From Aeropyrum pernix K1 (GTDB lineage: Archaea; Thermoproteota; Thermoprotei_A; Sulfolobales; Acidilobaceae): DNA of 32,000 bases. The DNA lies in contig NC_000854.2 in assembly GCF_000011125.1 (NCBI RefSeq), positions 1,440,001-1,472,000 of the forward strand, in the 5' to 3' direction. Under the pieces are notes generated by a model. That model was not told the DNA's origin. It saw nothing but the letters and a program-made list of their open reading frames with translations, and searched no databases. The position numbers were made by a program, and so were the translations under genes. Positions 998 through 22,307 of this stretch are shown piece by piece (the first letter of the stretch is position 1; each line of letters opens with the position of its first letter).

Positions 998-2641
998 TTA
1001 TTTGAGGAGCAGCCTTAAGACCGCTGCAGCCACGACAAGTGCAGCCAGCACTATAATTAGAGTGCGCGTGTCCAGCCCGAGGACGCTCCATATCGATGTT
1101 GTTACCGTGGATAGCGTCTTGGTTATTGTACCTATCGTTGCCGTATACGTTCCCACTTCGGTAAAAGTCTCTGTCTTGGTAACTGTTGCTGTTGCACCTC
1201 CTGTTACAGTCGATGTTACAGTTCTATAGCTTGTACTCGTCTCTGTTACAACCACAGTAGATGTTGAGCCTGCACCGCCTCCGGAGGCTCCACTTCCTGG
1301 TTCTTCTCCAGAGAGAATTTTCTGGATATCACTGCTAGAGAGGTAGATGAGGGCGTAGTTGTTGGAGAAGCTTAGCTCAGCGCCACCACCCTCCACAGCT
1401 ATGTATGCAACAAGGTCCTCGCCGGTATATCCCGAGTCAGGGAGGCTCAGCTCGACTCCTATAGTGTAAGTCCGTTTATCGCTCACGGCCAGGGGTGTAT
1501 CGTAGATGGCGGAAGCGCTGTAGACAGGGGTCTCCTCGTTGCTCCCGAGGAGCATAGCCCATATGAGCAGGTCATCCGTCATGTCGGCGTCTCCCATGTT
1601 GAAAACTTCTACGTCAGCCTCAATCACAATAGTAGGGCCCTCCTTGACAGCATAGCTGGTGTTCAGGAGCGTTAGAGCTGGGTCTGGAGGGTCTGTTGTC
1701 ATGCCTTTGGTCTTCAAGCCTCCAGCCGAAGTCACGGGCGCGCCCTTCCCGTCTAGGTCGAAAACAATTATCGGCGGCATCTTGGGCGACGACACTATGG
1801 GGGGTAACGCGGATATCTCCTTCTCGATAAGCCTCTTGAGGTGCGTCATAACCTTGGGGTCAGCCTCAAACTTGAACCACTTCCACGCAGGGTCGCTACC
1901 CTTGACGAGCTTCGAAGAGAGCGTAGAGAGTGCTGGATCTGAGGAGCTGGCGTAGAGTCTCGGCGTCCTCTTCAGTATGTTGCAAACCTCTAGCATGTCC
2001 TTAACAGTACCCCTTATCATAGACTCAGTCTTCTTGGGATCGGACGCGAGAGAGTCGGGGTCACGGCCTTTGATTATAGATGCCACAGCATGGCCGAGTG
2101 GAGGGCTATAGCCTTTGTGGGCGAAGGAGTCTTGGAGAGCGTGGAGGTAGACGCCATAGCCTGCTAGTACGCCCTGTGTTGGCCCCGCAGAGACGAAGCC
2201 CCCGTGGGCCGAGGACTTGCTCTTGGACAGGTAGGATGCTACTTCGGAGGGGCTGCCCATCGAGTGGAGCGTCTTCAGCTGTGTTGTATACCTATTATAC
2301 TCGTCGATAATAGCCCTAACAATAATATCAGGGAGCAGGACGTAAGCGGCCTTTCCATACCTCTTCACATAATCGTTTATTGTCTTCTTTATGGCGGTGC
2401 TGAGGCCGGGAAGAGGTGAGGTATCCGAGTCTAAGTCTACAGACATGTTCGCACTGGCTATAATTCTAGCCTCTATCGGCTCGAAGCAAGTAGCCAGGGC
2501 TAGGTAGTAGGTTAGGTAATAGTGAGTGTCCTTCTCATAGGCTTCGGCAGTGTAGACAGCCGGTGCAGATGGGGCTACGAGGGCTATCACTAAAGCTGCT
2601 GACACAAGTTTTAAAAACACGCTTCTAGGTTTTTGCACCAA
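998..2641 (-). CDS. Secreted, C-terminally anchored surface protein with a possible metal-hydrolase (H-x3-D-x3-H) motif
   Basis: 547-aa ORF with TTG/GTG start at 2641/2638 and GGAGG 8 nt upstream. N-terminal signal-like helix (FLKLVSAALVIALVAPSAPA). Motifs THYYLTYYLA and YLHALQDSFAHKGY. Thr-rich stalk (TSTVVVTETSTSYRTVTSTVTGGATATVTKTETFTE...). Terminal TM helix plus a basic tail (RLLLK). Confidence 0.7.
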   Translation of the reverse strand: MVQKPRSVFLKLVSAALVIALVAPSAPAVYTAEAYEKDTHYYLTYYLALATCFEPIEARIIASANMSVDLDSDTSPLPGLSTAIKKTINDYVKRYGKAAYVLLPDIIVRAIIDEYNRYTTQLKTLHSMGSPSEVASYLSKSKSSAHGGFVSAGPTQGVLAGYGVYLHALQDSFAHKGYSPPLGHAVASIIKGRDPDSLASDPKKTESMIRGTVKDMLEVCNILKRTPRLYASSSDPALSTLSSKLVKGSDPAWKWFKFEADPKVMTHLKRLIEKEISALPPIVSSPKMPPIIVFDLDGKGAPVTSAGGLKTKGMTTDPPDPALTLLNTSYAVKEGPTIVIEADVEVFNMGDADMTDDLLIWAMLLGSNEETPVYSASAIYDTPLAVSDKRTYTIGVELSLPDSGYTGEDLVAYIAVEGGGAELSFSNNYALIYLSSSDIQKILSGEEPGSGASGGGAGSTSTVVVTETSTSYRTVTSTVTGGATATVTKTETFTEVGTYTATIGTITKTLSTVTTSIWSVLGLDTRTLIIVLAALVVAAAVLRLLLK

Positions 2642-2775: not shown

Positions 2776-4758
2776 CTAGAGTTCCCTCAACACCCTTCCG
2801 GGCTCCTCCTGGAAAGCCGATCCGTAACCAACTAGTATCACTGTATCCGGCTGAAGGGCATCAAGTATCTCAGGCCTGTTTGTAGAAACTATGAGCGTTA
2901 TGCCTTTGCTTCGAGCCAGCTTGCCGAGCTTTCGCGCTATCCTCCTCGCTGTCAACGGGTCCAGGTGAGCCATAAACTCGTCTATAACCAGTAGATTGGG
3001 TCTCTCTGCCAGGAGGCTGGCTAGTTTAGCCCTCTCCTTCTGCCCTGTGCTGAGCTCTCCGAAGCTGGCTCTGAAGAATATTGCGTCACCCAGGCCCACA
3101 CTGCTGAGGACCTCGACAGCAGCCCCCGGGTCGCCGAGCTTAGAAGCCACATGCTCCAGCAGCGTCTCACCACCGAAGGATGGCTCCAGCTCGCCCGGGA
3201 GGAGTGCGGCCGCCTTGGTGTTTGTTGGTATCTTAACCACGCCGCTATCAGGCCTATAACCCTCGCCACCTATACCCAGCGCCTTTCCGAGTATCATTCG
3301 TAGCAGTGTGGTCTTCCCCGCCCCGCTGGCGCCGACGACCGCTGCCACGCTCCCTGGGTTCACAGTTATATTAACATCCTTCAGGACATACCTTTCCACC
3401 ACCCTCCTTTCGGCGCCGAACGCTCTTAGCACATCCTGAAGCTCCCTAGGCAGCCTCTCTATATCGAGGACGCTTCTGTAGGATTTTGTAACCCCCACTA
3501 GTGATTCAGGCTCGCTCAGCATCTCTACGGGGCTATATCTAGGCCTGTAGAGGACGCCTCCATGGCTTTTAGCCACGGGATCGCTGGACAGGAACTTTTC
3601 GATTATTCGCCTAGCCTCCTCTGTTAGTGGGTGCATAAGTACCGGCCGGCCGCTAGCCGTGTCCCACATGTACTTGAAACCTGCGCGCTCGAAGAAGGGA
3701 TTGTACCTGGCCATCTGTGCTATAGTCTCCACAACATGCTTAGCCCTCCTCATCTCCGGTATCCTCCTCTCCCTGATCCACTCTAGAGCCAGGCTAACAG
3801 AGGCTACCCCAAGCCCGTCTCCCCTATAGTCTGGGTGGACTACAACACGGGCTATCCTTGCGGCGGCCGTGTTAGCCCTTCTAAGTGCTTCATCAGCTAT
3901 CTCCTCGCCTACAGCAGCCCTGGCGATTCTCCTGCTGCCGTATAGCTTGGCGAGCTCCCTGAACCTGGCCAGCAGGCTTCGCCTATTACGGGGTTCTACT
4001 GGCCAGAAGGTCGGGTGGAACCAGTATTTCGGGAACACCTTTTCTCTTATCATCTTCTCGACTCCAAAACCTCCCCCAGGCTTGGGGACGCGGCGGTGCA
4101 TCAGGGGTATCGGGGTGTCAACCCTCACGTAACCCACTATCCTTGGCTCGTACGGCTTGCGGTCTAGAAGTTCGACAACCATGAATCTGCTGCTGGGCAG
4201 GCTTCCCCTTATTTCCTGGAGCTTCATGGGAACTCCGTCTCTAGGGCATTCTGGCTGTAGATTACTCTCTAGATAGACCCCGCATACTGGACACCTCCAT
4301 ATAGCTACTATCTCCTCTTTGCTGGCGTAGTGGTACTGTTCAAGCCCAACTATCTCTTTATAATCCTCCTCGGTTTGGGCCTCCCTGGCGAGGAGTCTAT
4401 AACTATATACCCTCCTGCCGGTGATAGTCTCCCTGTCAATCGATACAACCTTTCTCCAAACAGGCCATACTAGAACCCTCTCCCCTCTATAGATTCTCCA
4501 GAGCCTGTAACTCTCCCTAGGTGCAACCATGACACCATCTATATCCTCGGGTTCCTCGTGAAGCTCTAGCTCAACAGTTTCGCCGGGCGAGAACCAGCGG
4601 GCTATGCCGCCAGTCATAAACAAATGGAGTCTTCCTCCCTCGTGCTCTACAGTAAGTCCGCCCAGCCACCTCCAGCCCACGCGGGGTATACGCTGCCCGA
4701 TTACTTTAGCCTTAAAAGGCCTCATGAGGGGAGGGTTGTGAGAGGACACACAATACAC
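2776..4758 (-). CDS. ABC-type ATPase fused to a GNAT acetyltransferase-like domain (COG2401-like), with N-terminal domain of unknown function
   Basis: 660 aa. GNAT motif A-like VVVHPDYRGDGLGVASVSLALEW (aa ~305-327) and CPVCG-x11-C (aa 156-171). C-terminal NBD has Walker A GASGAGKTT (aa 476-484), signature LSTGQKERA and Walker B/D-loop LLVIDEFMAHLD. TATA (minus-sense TTTATA, 4786-4793) lies ~28 nt upstream of the GTG at 4758. Confidence 0.85.
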   Translation of the reverse strand: MYCVSSHNPPLMRPFKAKVIGQRIPRVGWRWLGGLTVEHEGGRLHLFMTGGIARWFSPGETVELELHEEPEDIDGVMVAPRESYRLWRIYRGERVLVWPVWRKVVSIDRETITGRRVYSYRLLAREAQTEEDYKEIVGLEQYHYASKEEIVAIWRCPVCGVYLESNLQPECPRDGVPMKLQEIRGSLPSSRFMVVELLDRKPYEPRIVGYVRVDTPIPLMHRRVPKPGGGFGVEKMIREKVFPKYWFHPTFWPVEPRNRRSLLARFRELAKLYGSRRIARAAVGEEIADEALRRANTAAARIARVVVHPDYRGDGLGVASVSLALEWIRERRIPEMRRAKHVVETIAQMARYNPFFERAGFKYMWDTASGRPVLMHPLTEEARRIIEKFLSSDPVAKSHGGVLYRPRYSPVEMLSEPESLVGVTKSYRSVLDIERLPRELQDVLRAFGAERRVVERYVLKDVNITVNPGSVAAVVGASGAGKTTLLRMILGKALGIGGEGYRPDSGVVKIPTNTKAAALLPGELEPSFGGETLLEHVASKLGDPGAAVEVLSSVGLGDAIFFRASFGELSTGQKERAKLASLLAERPNLLVIDEFMAHLDPLTARRIARKLGKLARSKGITLIVSTNRPEILDALQPDTVILVGYGSAFQEEPGRVLREL

Positions 4759-4958
4759 CCTTTTCTAGAGTTTCTGGCTACACAAGTATAAACACGATCT
4801 AGTTTGAAACTATGCTCACTACCCAAATTTTAGACAGGCATTTCACAAGCAGGCTAAACAGCAATGCTGCTAGCACCGATTATAATCACCTTTATCATCC
4901 TCCTTACTAGTTCGAGAGCGTCATGTGCTCTATATGTAAAATGAGACACCCCTTCAAG

Positions 4959-4982
4959 TTTATTAAAAACATTTTTTTAGCA
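4959..4982 (+). promoter_or_regulatory. TATA/promoter-like element, copy A (TTTATTAAAAACATTTTTTTAGCA)
   Basis: AT-rich box ~35-58 nt upstream of the GTG at 5017. A near-identical copy lies at 5392-5412. Confidence 0.4.
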
Positions 4983-5016
4983 GACAGTCACATTAGAACA
5001 TTACGGTGCACAAGAC

Positions 5017-5121
5017 GTGGAGGAGTTCGAGTGTAAGGAGTGTGGAGTGAAGTTTGCTACAAAAGAAGAATTCGAGAAGCACATTAAAGAACACCACTCA
5101 CATCACCACCATCATCATTGA
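5017..5121 (+). CDS. 34-aa classical C2H2 zinc-finger microprotein with His-rich C-terminal tail
   Basis: Not in the ORF track because it is under 60 aa. GTG 5017 to TGA 5119-5121 translates to (M/V)EEFECKECGVKFATKEEFEKHIKEHHSHHHHHH. This fits F-x-C-x2-C-x3-F-x5-F-x2-H-x3-H exactly. In-frame TAG at 4978-4980. GGTG at 5005-5008 is a weak SD, and the promoter-like box sits at 4959-4982. Confidence 0.6.
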   Translation: MEEFECKECGVKFATKEEFEKHIKEHHSHHHHHH

Positions 5122-5391
5122 CTGTAACAAACAACTGAGAGTAACTGTAACTCCTTTTAAACATATATTTCTGATTCGCTAATGTAATATCTTAACTCAA
5201 CCTTGGTCAATCCAGCACCTTTAGGACGTCGGGACCGCGTGATATCGTGATATAATGTGGAAGGATTATCATGTAGGTTTTTCGAGGGATTTCCCTCCAC
5301 GCCTTCACTAGCTTATTAGCTTCTTAGACGGCTATTGAGGTTGGTTAATTAGACATCATTGTGTAAACTCAAGATAGCGCCTTAAACTGTC

Positions 5392-5412
5392 TTTATTAAA
5401 ATATTTTTAGCA
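5392..5412 (+). promoter_or_regulatory. TATA/promoter-like element, copy B (TTTATTAAAATATTTTTAGCA)
   Basis: Second copy of the 4959-4982 element, ~150 nt upstream of the Trx-CcdA start at 5563. GAGGAGG occurs at 5524-5530. Confidence 0.35.
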
Positions 5413-5562
5413 TATACGTATTCCCAGGGCAACGCTATGTTACCCGGGCCCGACAGAGGTTCTCATAATAGTTCTGCTTAATCTCTCGAGTGTAACGACT
5501 GTTTATTGGTTTTTGGGGGATTTGAGGAGGTATTGGGAAGGCTTCGGGTCCGAGTGGCTTGA

Positions 5563-9913: not shown

Positions 9914-12151
9914 ATGTTAAAGGCTTTTGGAGGAGCATCTATAGCCCTTGTAACGGCTTTGCTGCTTCTCCTCGTCATAATACTCTCTCCAATCCAGGGA
10001 GCAGTTTCCGCTGCCTATAGTGTTCTCGTAGACGACTCGCATACTTACGGTAGAAGTATAGTTTACAATGCAATAAGCTCTAAAACTGGAATAGCGCCCC
10101 TCCAATATAGTGATGCGGCTGCAGGCACCATTTATAGTGATGGAGCGTTCGACGGCTTAATCACGCTGTACTATGGTACAATACCGTTTGCCACCGCGAG
10201 GTGGGATAGTAACTGGTCAGGCGATGACGTGTTTAACGATGTAGCCGCAAGTAGTCAGGCATCAGCCACGGTAGTGGGGTATACGAAGAAGTCTTACAGC
10301 CTGGGCGTCATCGCCGAGTACAATAACAATGGTCTCCTCCTTAACAATTACGTGTTCGGAGTCGGCGGGGCAAAACATGTAACAGTGAACGGTATAGTCT
10401 ATAGTCCTGCGCACAGCGCCTATGTTATAGTGGGTGACCTCGAGGGCGTCTCCTGGGCGCCCAAGGCAGGCTTCATAGCCATAGGAAACGCATCTGGCAT
10501 AGGAGGCATCGTAAAAGTAATACTAGCCTACAGTAGCTTCGAGAAGGTCGACGTGGTTAAGGACCCCTCTAACACCCGCTACGGCTATATAGCGGTAGCC
10601 GCAACATTCTTCAACAATACCGACATGAGCTTCGACGACGCCGGTGTTGTTCTTCTAGACCCCAATCTAAACCTCGTTACCTCGATGTACATAGACCTCC
10701 CTGGGCATGAGAAGGGGCTGGACGTCGCTTTTAACGGGTCTGAAGTAGTCCTTGCGGGCCAGAGCGTAGATTCCTCAGGAGGGAGTCATGGTTTCCTCTC
10801 GGCCAGCAAATACGACTTCGCGAACGACCTCTGGGCTAACATCTGGCACATGATTATAGACACGCCGGTGGACGATGCTGTCACTGGCGTGGACCTTAAA
10901 GCAGGCGTGATATACGTATCAGGCTACACCTCGATGCAGACTAACGGGCAGGCGACGGCGTTCGTAGGCTTCATAGACGGCGGCCCATCCCAGACAGTCC
11001 TCCTCGACTACACTGGCGGGAGCACGGTGTTCAACGATGTAAAGGCCGACGGCAACCAGTTTATACACGCCGCTGGCAAAGTCGTTGGACAGCCGTTCCC
11101 AGGCACCCTCTCCCAAAGCAGCATCACACCAATCATTTCGCAGCAGATTGTAGCTAACAGGAGTGACACGCTCAAGGACCTCGAGGCCAGAAACACGGAT
11201 GTCTCCGGGAGTTCGCAGCTTATAAGCCCTGTATACGATAACCCTACAACCCTAAGCGGCCTCTATGTAGTGCTTGCGCCGAAGGATGAAGGCGGGGGCA
11301 CCGATACGTCCACAACGACGACAACGACAATAACGACAATAACGATAACCGGTACTAGAACTACCACGACCTACACGACATTCCCAGGAACGGTAACGCC
11401 AACCTTCCCACAGCAGCCATACTGTATAGACATAAGCACCGGAAGCGAAGCACCCGGGGTACTCGACCCACTCGGCACTTTTGAAAACCCGGTAACTCAG
11501 GCGCCCGACTGGGGGACCAGCCAACCCCTAGGGAGGCCCGTCTCTTCAGTACAGCTGAGTGCGTGGCCCTCATTCCAGGGGGTCCAAGGCTTCCCCGGCC
11601 AGTGGATAACAGCCTACTTTGACCTTCAAGACCCCAGCAAGCCCGACTATAACACCACAAACAGGCCTGTAACAACATACGCCATAAGCTTCTACCTACC
11701 AGCTCCAGGGCAGCTCGTCATGGAGTGGAGTGCCGACGACTCCGGAGAGCTATTCATAGATGGAACGCTAGTTCAAACACACTCCGGCCAGAACGCCTTC
11801 CAGACGACAACCTCCTACCAAACAAGCCTCCTCCAGGGGAACCACACAATAGAAATCAGAGTGATGGACGAGCACGCCCACTACACGGGGCTGTTTGTAA
11901 GTGGCAGCGTCTGCGTTAACGCCTGCACACCAGAGACAGTAACAACCACTGTATATGCGCCGGGAGTCACAACATCAGTCGCGACAAAGACCGATGAGGG
12001 AGCCCAGGCTACAGTCACGTCACTCATACCGGAGGACGAAGGACCTCTCTCCAGCCTGCTAGACTCTATACCAGGCGGTATAGCTGGCGCTATTGCTATA
12101 ATAGCGGGCCTGGTTATAGCAACAGGAGTAGCATATAGAATATTGAAGTGA
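9914..12151 (+). CDS. Secreted surface protein: beta-rich N-domain, internal Thr stalk, PA14-like C-domain, C-terminal TM anchor
   Basis: 745 aa. Signal-like N-terminus (IALVTALLLLLVIILSPIQGAVSA). Poly-Thr stalk TSTTTTTTITTITITGTRTTTTYTT. The C-domain motif VMEWSADDSGELFIDGTLV...GNHTIEIRV resembles PA14-type beta-sandwiches. Second Thr-rich stretch, then a TM helix and the tail YRILK. Confidence 0.7.
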   Translation: MLKAFGGASIALVTALLLLLVIILSPIQGAVSAAYSVLVDDSHTYGRSIVYNAISSKTGIAPLQYSDAAAGTIYSDGAFDGLITLYYGTIPFATARWDSNWSGDDVFNDVAASSQASATVVGYTKKSYSLGVIAEYNNNGLLLNNYVFGVGGAKHVTVNGIVYSPAHSAYVIVGDLEGVSWAPKAGFIAIGNASGIGGIVKVILAYSSFEKVDVVKDPSNTRYGYIAVAATFFNNTDMSFDDAGVVLLDPNLNLVTSMYIDLPGHEKGLDVAFNGSEVVLAGQSVDSSGGSHGFLSASKYDFANDLWANIWHMIIDTPVDDAVTGVDLKAGVIYVSGYTSMQTNGQATAFVGFIDGGPSQTVLLDYTGGSTVFNDVKADGNQFIHAAGKVVGQPFPGTLSQSSITPIISQQIVANRSDTLKDLEARNTDVSGSSQLISPVYDNPTTLSGLYVVLAPKDEGGGTDTSTTTTTTITTITITGTRTTTTYTTFPGTVTPTFPQQPYCIDISTGSEAPGVLDPLGTFENPVTQAPDWGTSQPLGRPVSSVQLSAWPSFQGVQGFPGQWITAYFDLQDPSKPDYNTTNRPVTTYAISFYLPAPGQLVMEWSADDSGELFIDGTLVQTHSGQNAFQTTTSYQTSLLQGNHTIEIRVMDEHAHYTGLFVSGSVCVNACTPETVTTTVYAPGVTTSVATKTDEGAQATVTSLIPEDEGPLSSLLDSIPGGIAGAIAIIAGLVIATGVAYRILK
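11324..11350 (+). repeat. 9-bp tandem repeat (ACGACAATA x2 plus degenerate ACGATAACC) inside the poly-Thr stalk coding region
   Basis: Read directly: acgacaata (11324-11332), acgacaata (11333-11341), acgataacc (11342-11350). It encodes TTI-TTI-TIT. Confidence 0.7.
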
Positions 12152-22193: not shown

Positions 22194-22307
22194 TGGTCCC
22201 GCCGCGGGGATTCGAACCCCGGACCACCCGGTGTCTGCGGGGAGACACCGGGTTACGCCGCCCGCGTCCCACTACAGCCGGGCGCTCTGCCGCTGAGCTA
22301 CGGCGGG
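22194..22307 (-). tRNA. tRNA-Tyr (anticodon GUA) with 39-nt intron at 37/38 (22233-22271) and encoded CCA
   Basis: Minus strand: acceptor CCCGCCG / CGGCGGG (C1:G72), D arm GCUC-AGCGGCA-GAGC, anticodon stem CCCGG / CCGGG and loop CUGUAG^...^A. T arm is CGGGG-UUCGAAU-CCCCG, followed by A73-CCA. The intron ends form two 3-nt bulges around the 4-bp helix CUGU/GCAG (a BHB motif). Confidence 0.9.

Follow-up and report, generated by a model that had tools for sequence, protein, structure and literature searches.

A conserved 34-codon gene encoding a predicted C2H2 zinc finger with a histidine-rich tail in Aeropyrum pernix K1

The Aeropyrum pernix K1 chromosome contains, within the 32 kb stretch of DNA analysed here (the window, whose numbering is used throughout), a 34-codon open reading frame (ORF) that is almost certainly a real zinc-finger gene, and which is absent from the K1 gene calls due to its small size. 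The ORF runs from GTG 5017 to TGA 5121 on the forward strand and encodes (M)EEFECKECGVKFATKEEFEKHIKEHHSHHHHHH, with translation of 5017–5121 giving VEEFECKECGVKFATKEEFEKHIKEHHSHHHHHH*, so that the coordinates, length and translation of the original prediction were reproduced exactly. The best explanation as a whole, to which we assign a rough probability of 0.45, is a real finger gene whose product holds a structural zinc and carries a metal-binding tail, and which is not a classical DNA-binding transcription factor. The features of the locus are collected in Table 1.

Table 1. Features of the zinc-finger gene and its surroundings (positions in the window)
Feature	Position	Strand	Basis
Gene for a 34-codon zinc-finger micro-protein; GTG start, TGA stop	5017..5121	+	Translation, orthologs, purifying selection
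Classical C2H2 finger core, residues 4-26 (FECKECGVKFATKEEFEKHIKEH)	5026..5094	+	Pfam, AlphaFold2, Foldseek/phmmer
His-rich C-terminal tail, residues 27-34 (HSHHHHHH; HHSHHHHHH counting H26)	5095..5118	+	Sequence, orthologs
Promoter-like element P1, TATA-like TTTATTAAAAA then CATTTTTTTAGCA	4959..4982	+	Read from sequence
Shine-Dalgarno-like GGTG, 8 nt 5' of GTG	5005..5008	+	Conserved in ortholog loci
Candidate oligo-T transcription stop (CTCCTTTTAAAC...ATATATTTCTG)	5151..5174	+	Conserved layout; function inferred
Second promoter-like motif copy P2, TTTATTAAAATATTTTTAGCA	5392..5412	+	Approximately 150-170 nt upstream of the Trx-CcdA gene

An in-frame TAG is located at 4978–4980, and the first possible start codon after it is GTG 5017. 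The ORF lies in an 804-bp intergenic region (4759–5562) with a GC content of 0.39–0.41 versus approximately 0.55 in the surrounding DNA, as expected from its description as part of an AT-rich non-coding island, and is flanked by cellular genes, encoding a GNAT-ABC ATPase, Trx-CcdA, a CcmF-like protein and a peroxiredoxin, among others. The K1 gene calls on record include no gene with exactly the product of 5017–5121, and gene callers passed over the ORF both in K1 and in the Logan assemblies. The original description of the ORF as unlisted is correct for K1. In NCBI annotation, the orthologs from Aeropyrum camini and from the second A. pernix assembly, BDMD01, bear the name 'C2H2-type zinc finger protein'. 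Literature searches found no paper on this protein or its family, and no transcript or proteome study of the 34-residue protein.

Orthologs at the same position were detected in a second A. pernix strain (assembly BDMD01) and in A. camini. Comparison of K1 with A. camini showed differences at 19 of the 102 nt, 14 of which are at third codon positions, corresponding to a pN/pS of 0.11 (Fisher p=4e-8), with the flanking intergenic DNA not being alignable. Between K1 and BDMD01 there were no substitutions over 169 nt (4955–5123), with 6.5–13% differences in the flanking intergenic DNA. The reading frame, start codon, zinc ligands and tail were preserved in six divergent sequences, and stop codons were present in all five other frames. 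This pattern of substitutions identifies the ORF as a coding sequence that is subject to purifying selection. Its disruption in related genomes had been named in advance as evidence against a gene; the ORF was retained in both BDMD01 and A. camini, an outcome in favour of a gene. The synteny between the two Aeropyrum species is evidence of vertical inheritance. In three metagenome-assembled loci (L003–L005) encoding a neighbour protein with 74% identity, the gene order was different and the C2H2 ORF was lacking, and therefore the position of the gene is not conserved beyond A. pernix and A. camini.

The sequences collected to date place the family in Aeropyrum and close relatives from hydrothermal vents, with a nearly invariant finger and a tail of variable length. 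Family members were found via shared words and patterns such as KEEFEKH, and ascertainment thus accounts for part of the apparent invariance of KEEFEKH. When metagenomes were scanned with a strict back-translated KEEFEKHxKEHH pattern, no matches were obtained, whereas a scan with the family alignment gave, among the matches listed, only a Methanothrix contig (L014), with an ORF identical to that of locus L010. Matches in a HMMER search with the 30-residue finger were dominated by multi-finger proteins of 241–3374 aa, with 5–34 matched stretches each, and a profile search of NCBIfam returned nothing significant. More distant, tail-less relatives of 32–43 aa were found in Methanosarcinales and beyond, and these retain the KEEFEKH helix.

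By consensus, Pfam score and predicted fold, the K1 protein is a classical C2H2 finger, with C6, C9, H22 and H26 as predicted Zn(II) ligands. Residues 4–26 fit [FY]-x-C-x2-C-x3-F-x5-hydrophobic-x2-H-x3-H at all constrained positions, as do those of all orthologs, in which the four ligands and three core hydrophobic residues are retained. This is the single match to the consensus in all six frames of the window, with approximately 6e-6 full matches expected by chance per window from its amino-acid frequencies, and none in 300 Markov-simulated windows. Both the full consensus match and its improbability by chance, as originally put forward, are hence borne out. The Pfam model zf-C2H2_4 (PF13894) matched residues 4–27 with 27.5 bits (cut-off 27.0, E=4e-6), while the score for the older zf-C2H2 model (PF00096) was 15.7 bits, below its cut-off of 25.2. 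AlphaFold2 predicted the beta-beta-alpha arrangement for the core (pLDDT 89–94), with strands at residues 4–5 and 12–13 and a helix at residues 16–29, and searches with Foldseek and phmmer matched the fingers of CTCF, ZNF568, Miz-1 and the viral protein AFV1p06, with a Foldseek TMq of 0.7–0.77 against solved and predicted C2H2 fingers.

Histidine makes up eight of the last nine residues of the K1 protein, encoded by a mixture of CAC and CAT codons, and HHHHHH is the sole run of four or more His residues in any frame of the window. The tail is predicted to be disordered (pLDDT of approximately 60 with AlphaFold2). All six distinct family members end in a His-rich tail, which is between 8 and 22 residues long and has kept its composition of His with Gly, Glu and a terminal Cys, with 8–16 His residues in proteins of 34–48 residues, and with a Cys near the end of the tail (HCH or HSC) in three of the six. 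An in-frame 9-bp indel in the tail distinguishes the two A. pernix strains, and pN/pS between K1 and A. camini is 0.11 for the tail as well, although this is calculated from very few sites. Longer tails were seen in three further members, which come from assemblies of deep-sea vents, for example HHGGHEHHEHHHHHHHHGGHCH in locus L012. We conclude that the His-rich tail is maintained by selection, although its length varies.

The TATA-like sequence TTTATTAAAAA is located at 4959–4969, 48 nt 5' of the GTG start codon, and the position of P1 would fit an archaeal TATA box approximately 25 nt before a putative transcription start site near 4990. The only difference in P1 between the two A. pernix strains is a 1-nt change in the length of the T-run, and P1 is partly retained in A. 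camini (TAGTTAAAAC-TTTTTTAGTA) within otherwise non-alignable intergenic DNA. In each of the ortholog loci compared (K1, BDMD01, A. camini, L012, L015/L016 and L017), a GGTG motif precedes the start by 5–9 nt, and a C-rich stretch followed by TTTT(T)AAA is found approximately 35–50 nt past the stop in K1, A. camini, L012, L015 and L017. The TATA-like box, the GGTG motif for ribosome binding and a T-run 3' of the coding region were present in every ortholog, so that the TATA-like element noted at the outset is conserved along with the ribosome-binding motif. Oligo-T termination is established in archaea, and the T-run at 5151..5174 may serve this function. The motif TTTATTAAAA (≤1 mismatch) occurs in the whole window only in P1 and in the copy at 5392, and the latter is retained in A. 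camini (TAAAATATTTTTAGCATATACG) amid non-alignable DNA. The two copies differ by indels, and the shared motif was found only with a shorter pattern, with none shared without gaps. The Trx-CcdA gene may be co-regulated with the finger gene via P2, although it is uncertain whether P2 belongs to the feature.

We propose that the finger gene would be transcribed independently, and that its product would consist of one beta-beta-alpha C2H2 finger with a flexible His-rich tail. One structural Zn(II) would be held by the four predicted ligands, and this zinc, together with i/i+4 Glu-Lys pairs of the helix KEEFEKHIKEH, would stabilise the minimal fold at ≥90 °C. The exposed tail would bind additional divalent ions (Zn, Ni, Cu or Co), as in Hpn, SlyD, HypB and UreE, and the protein could then buffer or chaperone metals in the cytosol, or switch the activity of a docking target of the finger in a metal-dependent manner. 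A zinc-stabilised micro-protein with a tail binding a further divalent metal is probably the best reading of the sequence and model data, with a role in metal handling for the 34-residue protein being a tentative proposal, to which we give somewhat less than even odds. Of the roles put forward originally, that of a metal sensor or buffer is the favoured candidate. Support by analogy comes from small His-rich proteins of the Hpn type, which bind and store nickel (PMC4671568, PMC3856676).

Several observations count against the metal-tail proposal. No conserved partner gene accompanies the finger gene, and its neighbourhood is lineage-specific: a search across the His-tail subfamily for a conserved functional neighbour found none, with the neighbourhood differing in every lineage, and no metal transporter or metalloregulator was linked to the finger gene across the lineages compared. 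Furthermore, A. pernix is an aerobe without an obvious large demand for nickel. Finally, KEEFEKH is kept in the tail-less relatives, and therefore the finger has a role of its own which the metal tail does not explain; the invariant surface residues could reflect a macromolecular partner instead of thermostability.

Such a partner is central to an alternative which we consider unlikely, in which the protein is a protein-binding adaptor or regulator, with an invariant helix face (K16, E17, E18, E20, K21, K24 and E25) docking on a conserved partner (an enzyme or the ribosome, for instance), and the tail being secondary. The helix surface is indeed invariant or nearly so in the His-tail subfamily and largely also in the distant archaeal tail-less relatives, and C2H2 fingers are capable of protein-protein contacts (PMC3541406). 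The genomic context gives some hints in the same direction, since the tail-less form of Methanosarcinales is located directly 3' of genes encoding a Zn-dependent glucose-dehydrogenase-like protein and a GH15 protein in three loci, and one His-tail member lies 150 nt upstream of a gene of the Zn-ADH family. However, no partner gene is shared across lineages, the same conservation of the helix could result from the stabilising salt bridges of a hyperthermophile combined with a search that selects for KEEFEKH, and an adaptor function leaves the retention and extension of the tail unexplained.

The original prediction included a small DNA- or RNA-binding regulator, which would resemble AFV1p06 or the single-finger factors of eukaryotes, with the His tail aiding binding or oligomerisation. 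Most C2H2 fingers bind nucleic acids, and AFV1p06, with a single finger in 59 aa, binds DNA (PMC3541406). The K1 finger resembles AFV1p06 in predicted structure (TMq 0.73), as well as a 40-aa 'putative DNA-binding protein' of Sulfolobus polyhedral virus 1 (TMq 0.77), and the gene lies in an intergenic island of regulatory appearance, behind a promoter-like element of its own whose motif recurs before the neighbouring operon. The properties of the protein nevertheless disfavour this function, which we regard as rather improbable. With 8–9 acidic versus 4–5 basic residues, its pI is 6.0–6.3 (approximately 6.2, versus 9.6 for AFV1p06), helix positions -1, 2, 3 and 6 are T/S, E, E and K, placing Glu at positions 2 and 3, and there is no basic extension at the N- or C-terminus. 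Single fingers such as those of GAGA and AFV1p06 require extensions for DNA binding (PMC3541406), and the K1 protein lacks the basic or structured extensions that these use. Since the protein is acidic, has Glu at DNA-contact positions and is without a basic extension, a classical sequence-specific DNA-binding transcription factor is unlikely. Moreover, the similarity to AFV1p06 is limited to 20 residues with 35% identity, and one finger reads only 3–4 bp.

With regard to origin, the suggestion that single fingers are typical of crenarchaeal viruses agrees with the literature, in which all C2H2 fingers known to date from Crenarchaeota come from viruses or proviruses (PMC3541406). This would fit a domesticated or remnant gene of a virus or plasmid in an AT-rich foreign island, as would the GC content of the island (0.39 versus 0.55) and the best Foldseek match in the viral library, a Sulfolobus virus protein, albeit with an E-value of 0.5. 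The searches did not yield a viral relative: tblastn against GenBank phage and archaeal-virus records gave no match at E≤10 for this short query with the low-complexity filter on, a scan of IMG/VR limited to the exact 7-mers MEEFECK and ECGVKFA confirmed nothing, and nothing significant was found in PHROGs (best E=0.02), although these searches reached close relatives only. There were no signs of an integrase or att site around the K1 finger gene, the position among housekeeping genes is the same in two species, and the orthologs in four other contigs are likewise located among cellular genes. Low GC is usual in archaeal intergenic and promoter DNA, and the 43% GC of the ORF itself results from its Glu, Lys and His codons. 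We therefore consider the domesticated viral gene that had been proposed to be very unlikely.

The run of 6–8 consecutive His codons ending a tiny ORF upstream of another transcription unit is reminiscent of a regulatory leader peptide, in which His codons would sense charged tRNA-His in the manner of bacterial his-operon attenuators and the peptide itself would be functionless. This is extremely improbable and was rejected, as strong purifying selection acts on the finger part, in which no zinc ligand has been lost, and as the next gene downstream lies 440 nt further on, behind a promoter-like element of its own, is unrelated to histidine biosynthesis and varies by lineage. A scan for hairpin terminators detected no terminator-like hairpins downstream of the ORF, nor were there alternative hairpins, and the RNA structure of the transcript region was not unusual (z=+1.25), which also led us to reject a structured small RNA. 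A chance ORF or a conserved non-coding element (promoter or small RNA) resembling a zinc finger has next to no likelihood, for although the ORF is very short, was missed by gene callers and offers, in the comparison of the two A. pernix strains, no substitutions by which a coding constraint could be distinguished from a non-coding one, this reading is refuted by the codon-level substitution pattern versus A. camini, together with the very low expectation of a chance match and the conservation in six sequences described above.

A chromosomal, syntenic and selected family adds a cellular data point on the origin of the fold, the earlier crenarchaeal examples being viral or proviral (PMC3541406). 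At 34 aa, the K1 protein is among the smallest natural complete C2H2 proteins, in a host growing at 90–95 °C, and its natural His tag lends it to easy IMAC purification from native cells and to studies of minimal-fold thermostability. The gene is also a clear example of a real gene missed in the K1 gene calls on record. To our knowledge, archaea do not have metallothioneins, and the protein is a candidate metal-handling protein in this domain. A broader claim, which we regard as doubtful at present, is that the Aeropyrum proteins represent an undescribed class of archaeal metal-binding micro-proteins, in which a minimal, hyperthermostable C2H2 finger would anchor an Hpn-like poly-His tail as a cytosolic metal buffer or chaperone in metal-rich vents, and which would in addition give Crenarchaeota their first C2H2 family that is clearly cellular and vertically inherited. 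If true, this would bear on the question of whether the classical 'eukaryotic' finger arose in archaeal cells rather than in viruses.

Classical C2H2 fingers are a hallmark DNA-binding module of eukaryotes, and the K1 finger is identical to eukaryotic fingers (PF00096/PF13894; ZNF568, CTCF, Zif268) in consensus spacing, ligands, hydrophobic core and predicted fold, with per-finger sequence matches of up to approximately 14 bits. Eukaryotic C2H2 proteins differ in having tandem arrays, TGEKP-type linkers and basic DNA-contact residues, whereas the finger of the K1 protein stands alone without a linker, has acidic residues at the contact positions and is followed by a poly-His tail. Ros/MucR fingers have C-x2-C-x9-H-x3-4-H spacing in a domain of approximately 58 residues, within a DNA-binding protein of approximately 140 aa, and we rejected membership of this group for the 34-aa K1 protein with its C-x2-C-x12-H-x3-H spacing.

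The closest viral comparison is AFV1p06 (ORF59a; PDB 2LVH), which is likewise a very small protein with a single classical-type finger from a hyperthermophilic crenarchaeal system (PMC3541406), and which shares the beta-beta-alpha core. AFV1p06 is viral, basic and DNA-binding, the fourth His is missing, and its finger continues into a conserved extension formed by a loop, a helix and a third strand (PMC3541406). The Aeropyrum protein in contrast is chromosomal and acidic, with a complete C2H2 site and a His-rich tail but no such extension, since the K1 protein stops 8 residues past the last ligand and the BLASTP alignment covers residues 4–23 only. It also differs from the AFV1p06 family in its cellular context, syntenic in two species, and in that viral relatives were not found in our searches.

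The tail-less single-C2H2 proteins of the 'euryarchaeal ZNF group' (PMC3541406; P0273, P0275–P0283, loci L010–L013 and L028) are similar in size and in having one finger, share the helix FxSKEEFEKH with 55–68% identity over the finger, and are apparently encoded by stand-alone small genes. They differ in lacking the His-rich tail, having short K/D/S-rich ends and a pI of 4.5–9.0, and the conserved position of the Methanosarcinales form after the glucose-dehydrogenase-like and GH15 genes is unlike that in Aeropyrum. The C(P)XCG micro-proteins of Haloferax volcanii (PMC6562870, PMC11241148) are also archaeal single-domain zinc fingers of <70 aa, whose small, stand-alone genes frequently escape annotation. 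These belong to the C4 zinc ribbon or knuckle type and have two C(P)XCG motifs, whereas the K1 protein has one CxxCG (C6–G10), HxxxH as second ligand pair, as in the classical C2H2 fold, and a His tail, and it was hence not assigned to this haloarchaeal group.

The combination of a C2H2 finger with a His-rich tail was not found in any paper in our literature search, and the tail is best compared with the small His-rich proteins Hpn and Hpn-2 of Helicobacter and with the His-rich tails of SlyD, HypB and UreE, where a low-complexity C-terminal stretch of variable length abounds in His, Gly and Glu and may also contain Cys (PMC4671568). The Aeropyrum family has a similar His-dense, low-complexity stretch with Gly, Glu and Cys, with putative metal binding; the tail of the L012 member is Hpn-like in style, and the Aeropyrum protein is likewise small and probably cytosolic. 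As homology is not demonstrable for low-complexity sequence, we do not claim membership of the Hpn-type proteins, from which the Aeropyrum protein differs in that its gene is not linked to urease or hydrogenase genes and in that its tail is fused to a folded zinc finger.

The ORF listed first in the table below starts at GTG, the first possible start after an in-frame TAG, and ends at TGA, with VEEFECKECGVKFATKEEFEKHIKEHHSHHHHHH as its translation product. Residues 4-26 conform to the classical C2H2 pattern in its strict form, and a scan of all six frames gave no other strict match in the window. Chance alone, at the amino-acid frequencies of the window, would give ~6e-6 matches, and none occurred in 300 Markov-simulated windows, which bears out the original prediction that a full match is very unlikely by chance. 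The product reached the cut-off of the Pfam zf-C2H2_4 model (27.5 bits versus 27, E=4e-6), and fell below that of the older zf-C2H2 model. AlphaFold2 predicted a canonical hairpin and a helix at residues 16-29 for the K1 protein (pLDDT 89-94 in the core, ~60 in the tail), and sequence and structure searches matched classical fingers such as ZNF568, CTCF, Miz-1 and Zif268. Archaeal systems supplied two structural matches, the viral single-finger protein AFV1p06 (PDB 2LVH) at TMq 0.73 and, at TMq 0.77, a Sulfolobus polyhedral virus 1 protein of 40 aa; the Foldseek E-values are not significant because the domain is very short. By motif, profile score and predicted fold, the protein belongs to the classical C2H2 class. 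The gene lies in an 804-bp intergenic island with a GC content of ~0.39-0.41, compared with ~0.55 elsewhere, and the initial description of the ORF, its coordinates, C2H2 match, His tail and AT-rich island was correct throughout.

Positions of the finger gene and of other features in the window and on related contigs
Feature	Contig	Positions	Strand	Remarks
Finger gene	window	5017-5121	+	34 codons
In-frame TAG	window	4978-4980	+	precedes the first possible start
Substitution-free run	window	4955-5123		169 nt, K1 versus second A. pernix strain; slightly upstream of TATA-like box to slightly past stop codon
GNAT plus ABC-ATPase gene	window	2776-4758	-	one flank of the finger gene, divergently transcribed
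Thioredoxin-CcdA-like gene	window	5563/5578-6762	+	other flank; CcmF-like gene next
P1, TTTATTAAAAACATTTTTTTAGCA	window	4959-4982	+	promoter-like motif before the finger gene
Direct repeat, GTGATATCGTGATATAATGTG	window	5240-5262	+	GTGATAT twice, between finger gene and P2
P2, TTTATTAAAATATTTTTAGCA	window	5392-5412	+	promoter-like motif ~150-170 nt before the thioredoxin-CcdA-like gene
P2 to thioredoxin-CcdA start	window	5413-5562	+	ATG 5563 or 5578
tRNA	window	22197-22307	-	111 nt versus 71-position model
745-aa ORF	window	9914-12151	+	no Pfam match; downstream of CcmF-like gene; conserved, syntenic in A. camini
547-aa ORF	window	998-2641	-	short DUF6765 match only; conserved, syntenic in A. 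camini
Tail-less C2H2 micro-protein gene	L011	5956-6084		35-36 aa; Methanosarcinales-type contig
Tail-less C2H2 micro-protein gene	L013	5953-6084		35-36 aa; Methanosarcinales-type contig
Tail-less C2H2 micro-protein gene	L028	3501-3611		35-36 aa; Methanosarcinales-type contig
Second 32-aa called gene	L020	4431-4529	-	near type II restriction-modification (MmeI-like) gene
Second 32-aa called gene	L021	3394-3492	-	near type II restriction-modification (MmeI-like) gene

The ORF is conserved and protein-coding, and specifies a C2H2 finger with a His-rich tail. A second A. pernix strain (assembly BDMD01) is 95.6% identical to the window across 11 kb, and the 169 nt from slightly upstream of the TATA-like box to slightly past the stop codon are free of substitutions, while 6.5% and 13.4% of sites differ in the intergenic DNA on either side, with several indels. 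By our own arithmetic, the probability that none of the 163 sites between TATA box and stop codon would change is ~1e-8 at the pooled flanking rate of ~0.106; the strains differ there only by 1 nt in a T-run and by an in-frame insertion of 9 bp, which turns the tail HSHHHHHH into HSHEHHHHHHH in the second strain. A. camini, the source of the next relative after A. pernix of a neighbouring 660-aa protein (87% identity), has an ORF in the same position encoding VEEYECKECGIKFSSKEEFEKHMKEHHSHEHHHH, within intergenic DNA that cannot be aligned with that of K1. The two ORFs differ at 19 of 102 sites, with 14 of the differences at third codon positions, and Nei-Gojobori counts (11.5 synonymous changes over 14.2 sites, 7.5 non-synonymous over 84.8) give a pN/pS of 0.11 (Fisher p = 4e-8). 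Within the finger, the five amino-acid replacements (F/Y, V/I, A/S, T/S, I/M) are all conservative, and all five alternative reading frames of the ORF contain stops.

Three further members came from scanning one genome per prokaryotic species with a pattern and searching a protein collection with a profile. They are MSETYECKECNLTFSSKEEFEKHLKEHHGGHEHHEHHHHHHHHGGHCH, on a MAG with the label 'Aeropyrum sp.' (L012), and MAEYECKECGIKFATKEEYEKHMKEHHGHHHEHHGHGHSC (P0274) and MEYECKECGIKFSTKEEFEQHVKEHHGGHEHHHHHGHGHHCH (P0279), on metagenome contigs from the REYS20-1 series of samples, which we take to be from Brothers volcano vents. The TATA-like element noted originally is common to all orthologs, 45-58 nt upstream of the start, as are a GGTG 5-9 nt upstream of the start and, 35-50 nt past the stop, a C-rich stretch and then TTTT(T)AAA. 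Loss of the ORF in relatives had been named as evidence against a gene; it is instead kept in the second strain, A. camini and the three further members, and this retention, the substitution pattern and the common layout together argue for a gene. A structured small RNA fails to explain the conservation, since the structure of the transcript region is not unusual (z = +1.25).

The gene is absent from the K1 gene calls on record, as the gene-position collection contained no record with exactly its 34-aa product, and gene callers skipped the identical ORF in four K1-like read assemblies. The description 'unlisted' thus applies to K1, but not to the orthologs of A. pernix GCA_004323575.1 (P0001, 37 aa) and A. 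camini SY1 (P0272, 34 aa), both automatically named 'C2H2-type zinc finger protein' by NCBI. A literature search found no paper on the protein.

The tail is the distinctive part of the protein. Over six distinct sequences it ranges from 8 to 22 residues, and in each of them His predominates, accompanied by some Gly, Glu and Ser and, in three of the six, by a Cys near the end. The His-rich metal-binding tails of Hpn, SlyD, HypB and UreE are constant in composition and variable in length, and the Aeropyrum-family tail behaves likewise, including the in-frame indel between two strains.

Among the orthologs compared, only A. pernix and A. camini have a common gene neighbourhood. The finger gene lies between metallo-beta-lactamase-fold and SDH-type protease genes in L012 and after an ABC-2 permease gene in L017; in L015/L016 it is flanked by an MFS transporter gene on one side and, 150 nt downstream, by a gene of the Zn-ADH family on the other. 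Around more distant relatives of the K1 neighbour gene, the genes are ordered differently and no C2H2 ORF is close by. Every locus has a cellular context, and the K1 window has housekeeping genes, such as those for a peroxiredoxin, a Lon-like protease, an acyl-CoA synthetase and adenosine kinase. No integrase or att site was seen in the K1 window, and no viral relatives were found in GenBank phage and archaeal-virus records, IMG/VR or PHROGs, so the suggestion of a domesticated viral gene is not supported as a recent origin. An ancient viral origin is conceivable, since the range of these searches ends at fairly close relatives.

The profile search also found tail-less single-finger proteins of 32-43 aa in Methanothrix, other Methanosarcinales MAGs and further metagenomes, matching the 'euryarchaeal ZNF group' mentioned in PMC3541406. 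Their helix is near-identical (FxSKEEFEKH), although the apparent invariance of KEEFEKH is partly an ascertainment effect because relatives were found via shared words such as this one. In three Methanosarcinales loci, on three contigs, the small tail-less gene comes directly after the genes for a Zn-dependent glucose-dehydrogenase-like protein and a GH15 glycosidase, a conserved order of three genes which may point to the partner of the finger. Contigs with the 32-aa tail-less finger P0283 have a second 32-aa gene called ~1.3 kb away on the opposite strand.

We favour a role as a cytosolic metal-binding micro-protein, in which C6, C9, H22 and H26 would hold one structural Zn(II), the i/i+4 Glu-Lys pairs of the helix KEEFEKHIKEH (E17-K21, E20-K24, K21-E25) would stabilise the minimal fold at >=90 C, and the disordered tail would take up additional divalent metal. 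Such a protein could act as metal buffer or chaperone, or as a metal-dependent switch on an interaction of the finger with its partner. However, the loci compared have no conserved metal-related neighbour, and the tail-less relatives show that the finger also has an independent role, perhaps the binding of a partner protein. The proposed DNA/RNA-binding regulator is, for DNA, unlikely in its classical form, since the family is acidic (pI 6.0-6.3, 8-9 acidic versus 4-5 basic residues) whereas the DNA-binding AFV1p06 has a pI of 9.6, Glu occupies helix positions 2 and 3, a single finger reads only 3-4 bp, and the extension used by single-finger DNA binders (PMC3541406) is absent. A leader peptide with His codons as attenuator was rejected, given the purifying selection on the finger, the lack of alternative hairpins, and downstream genes that are variable and unrelated to histidine.

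The near-identical motifs P1 and P2 share the intergenic island and are the only TTTATTAAAA sites with <=1 mismatch in the 32 kb; the pair is also noted for loci L001 and L002. A. camini retains both motifs despite the unalignable DNA around them. This suggests that the finger gene may be co-regulated with the thioredoxin-CcdA/CcmF-like operon, or that a long leader or small RNA could arise from P2. A leader of ~150-170 nt is unusually long for archaea. Between P2 and the thioredoxin-CcdA start, ~7% of sites differ between the two A. pernix strains, comparable to the 6.5% left of the finger gene and half of the 13% between finger gene and P2, and this stretch had no Rfam match. That start is ambiguous, as the ORF gives 399 aa, called genes give 394 aa and the A. 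camini protein has 409 aa. The second A. pernix strain retains the direct repeat but for a G to A change in the last base; the repeat is not kept in A. camini. The sole Rfam match in the window was the tRNA, which probably has an intron; tRNA introns are common in Crenarchaeota.

In comparison with known systems, the Aeropyrum protein falls outside the AFV1p06 family, as it lacks the extension, is not viral and is 35% identical over 20 residues only, nor does it belong with the haloarchaeal C(P)XCG or the Ros/MucR fingers. Its likeness to Hpn-type proteins (PMC4671568, PMC3856676) is functional and compositional only. The literature search found no paper describing a fusion of a finger and a poly-His tail. 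Both the minimal classical finger fused to a poly-His tail and the family of single-finger proteins in crenarchaeal cells, with synteny between two Aeropyrum species, appear to be new.
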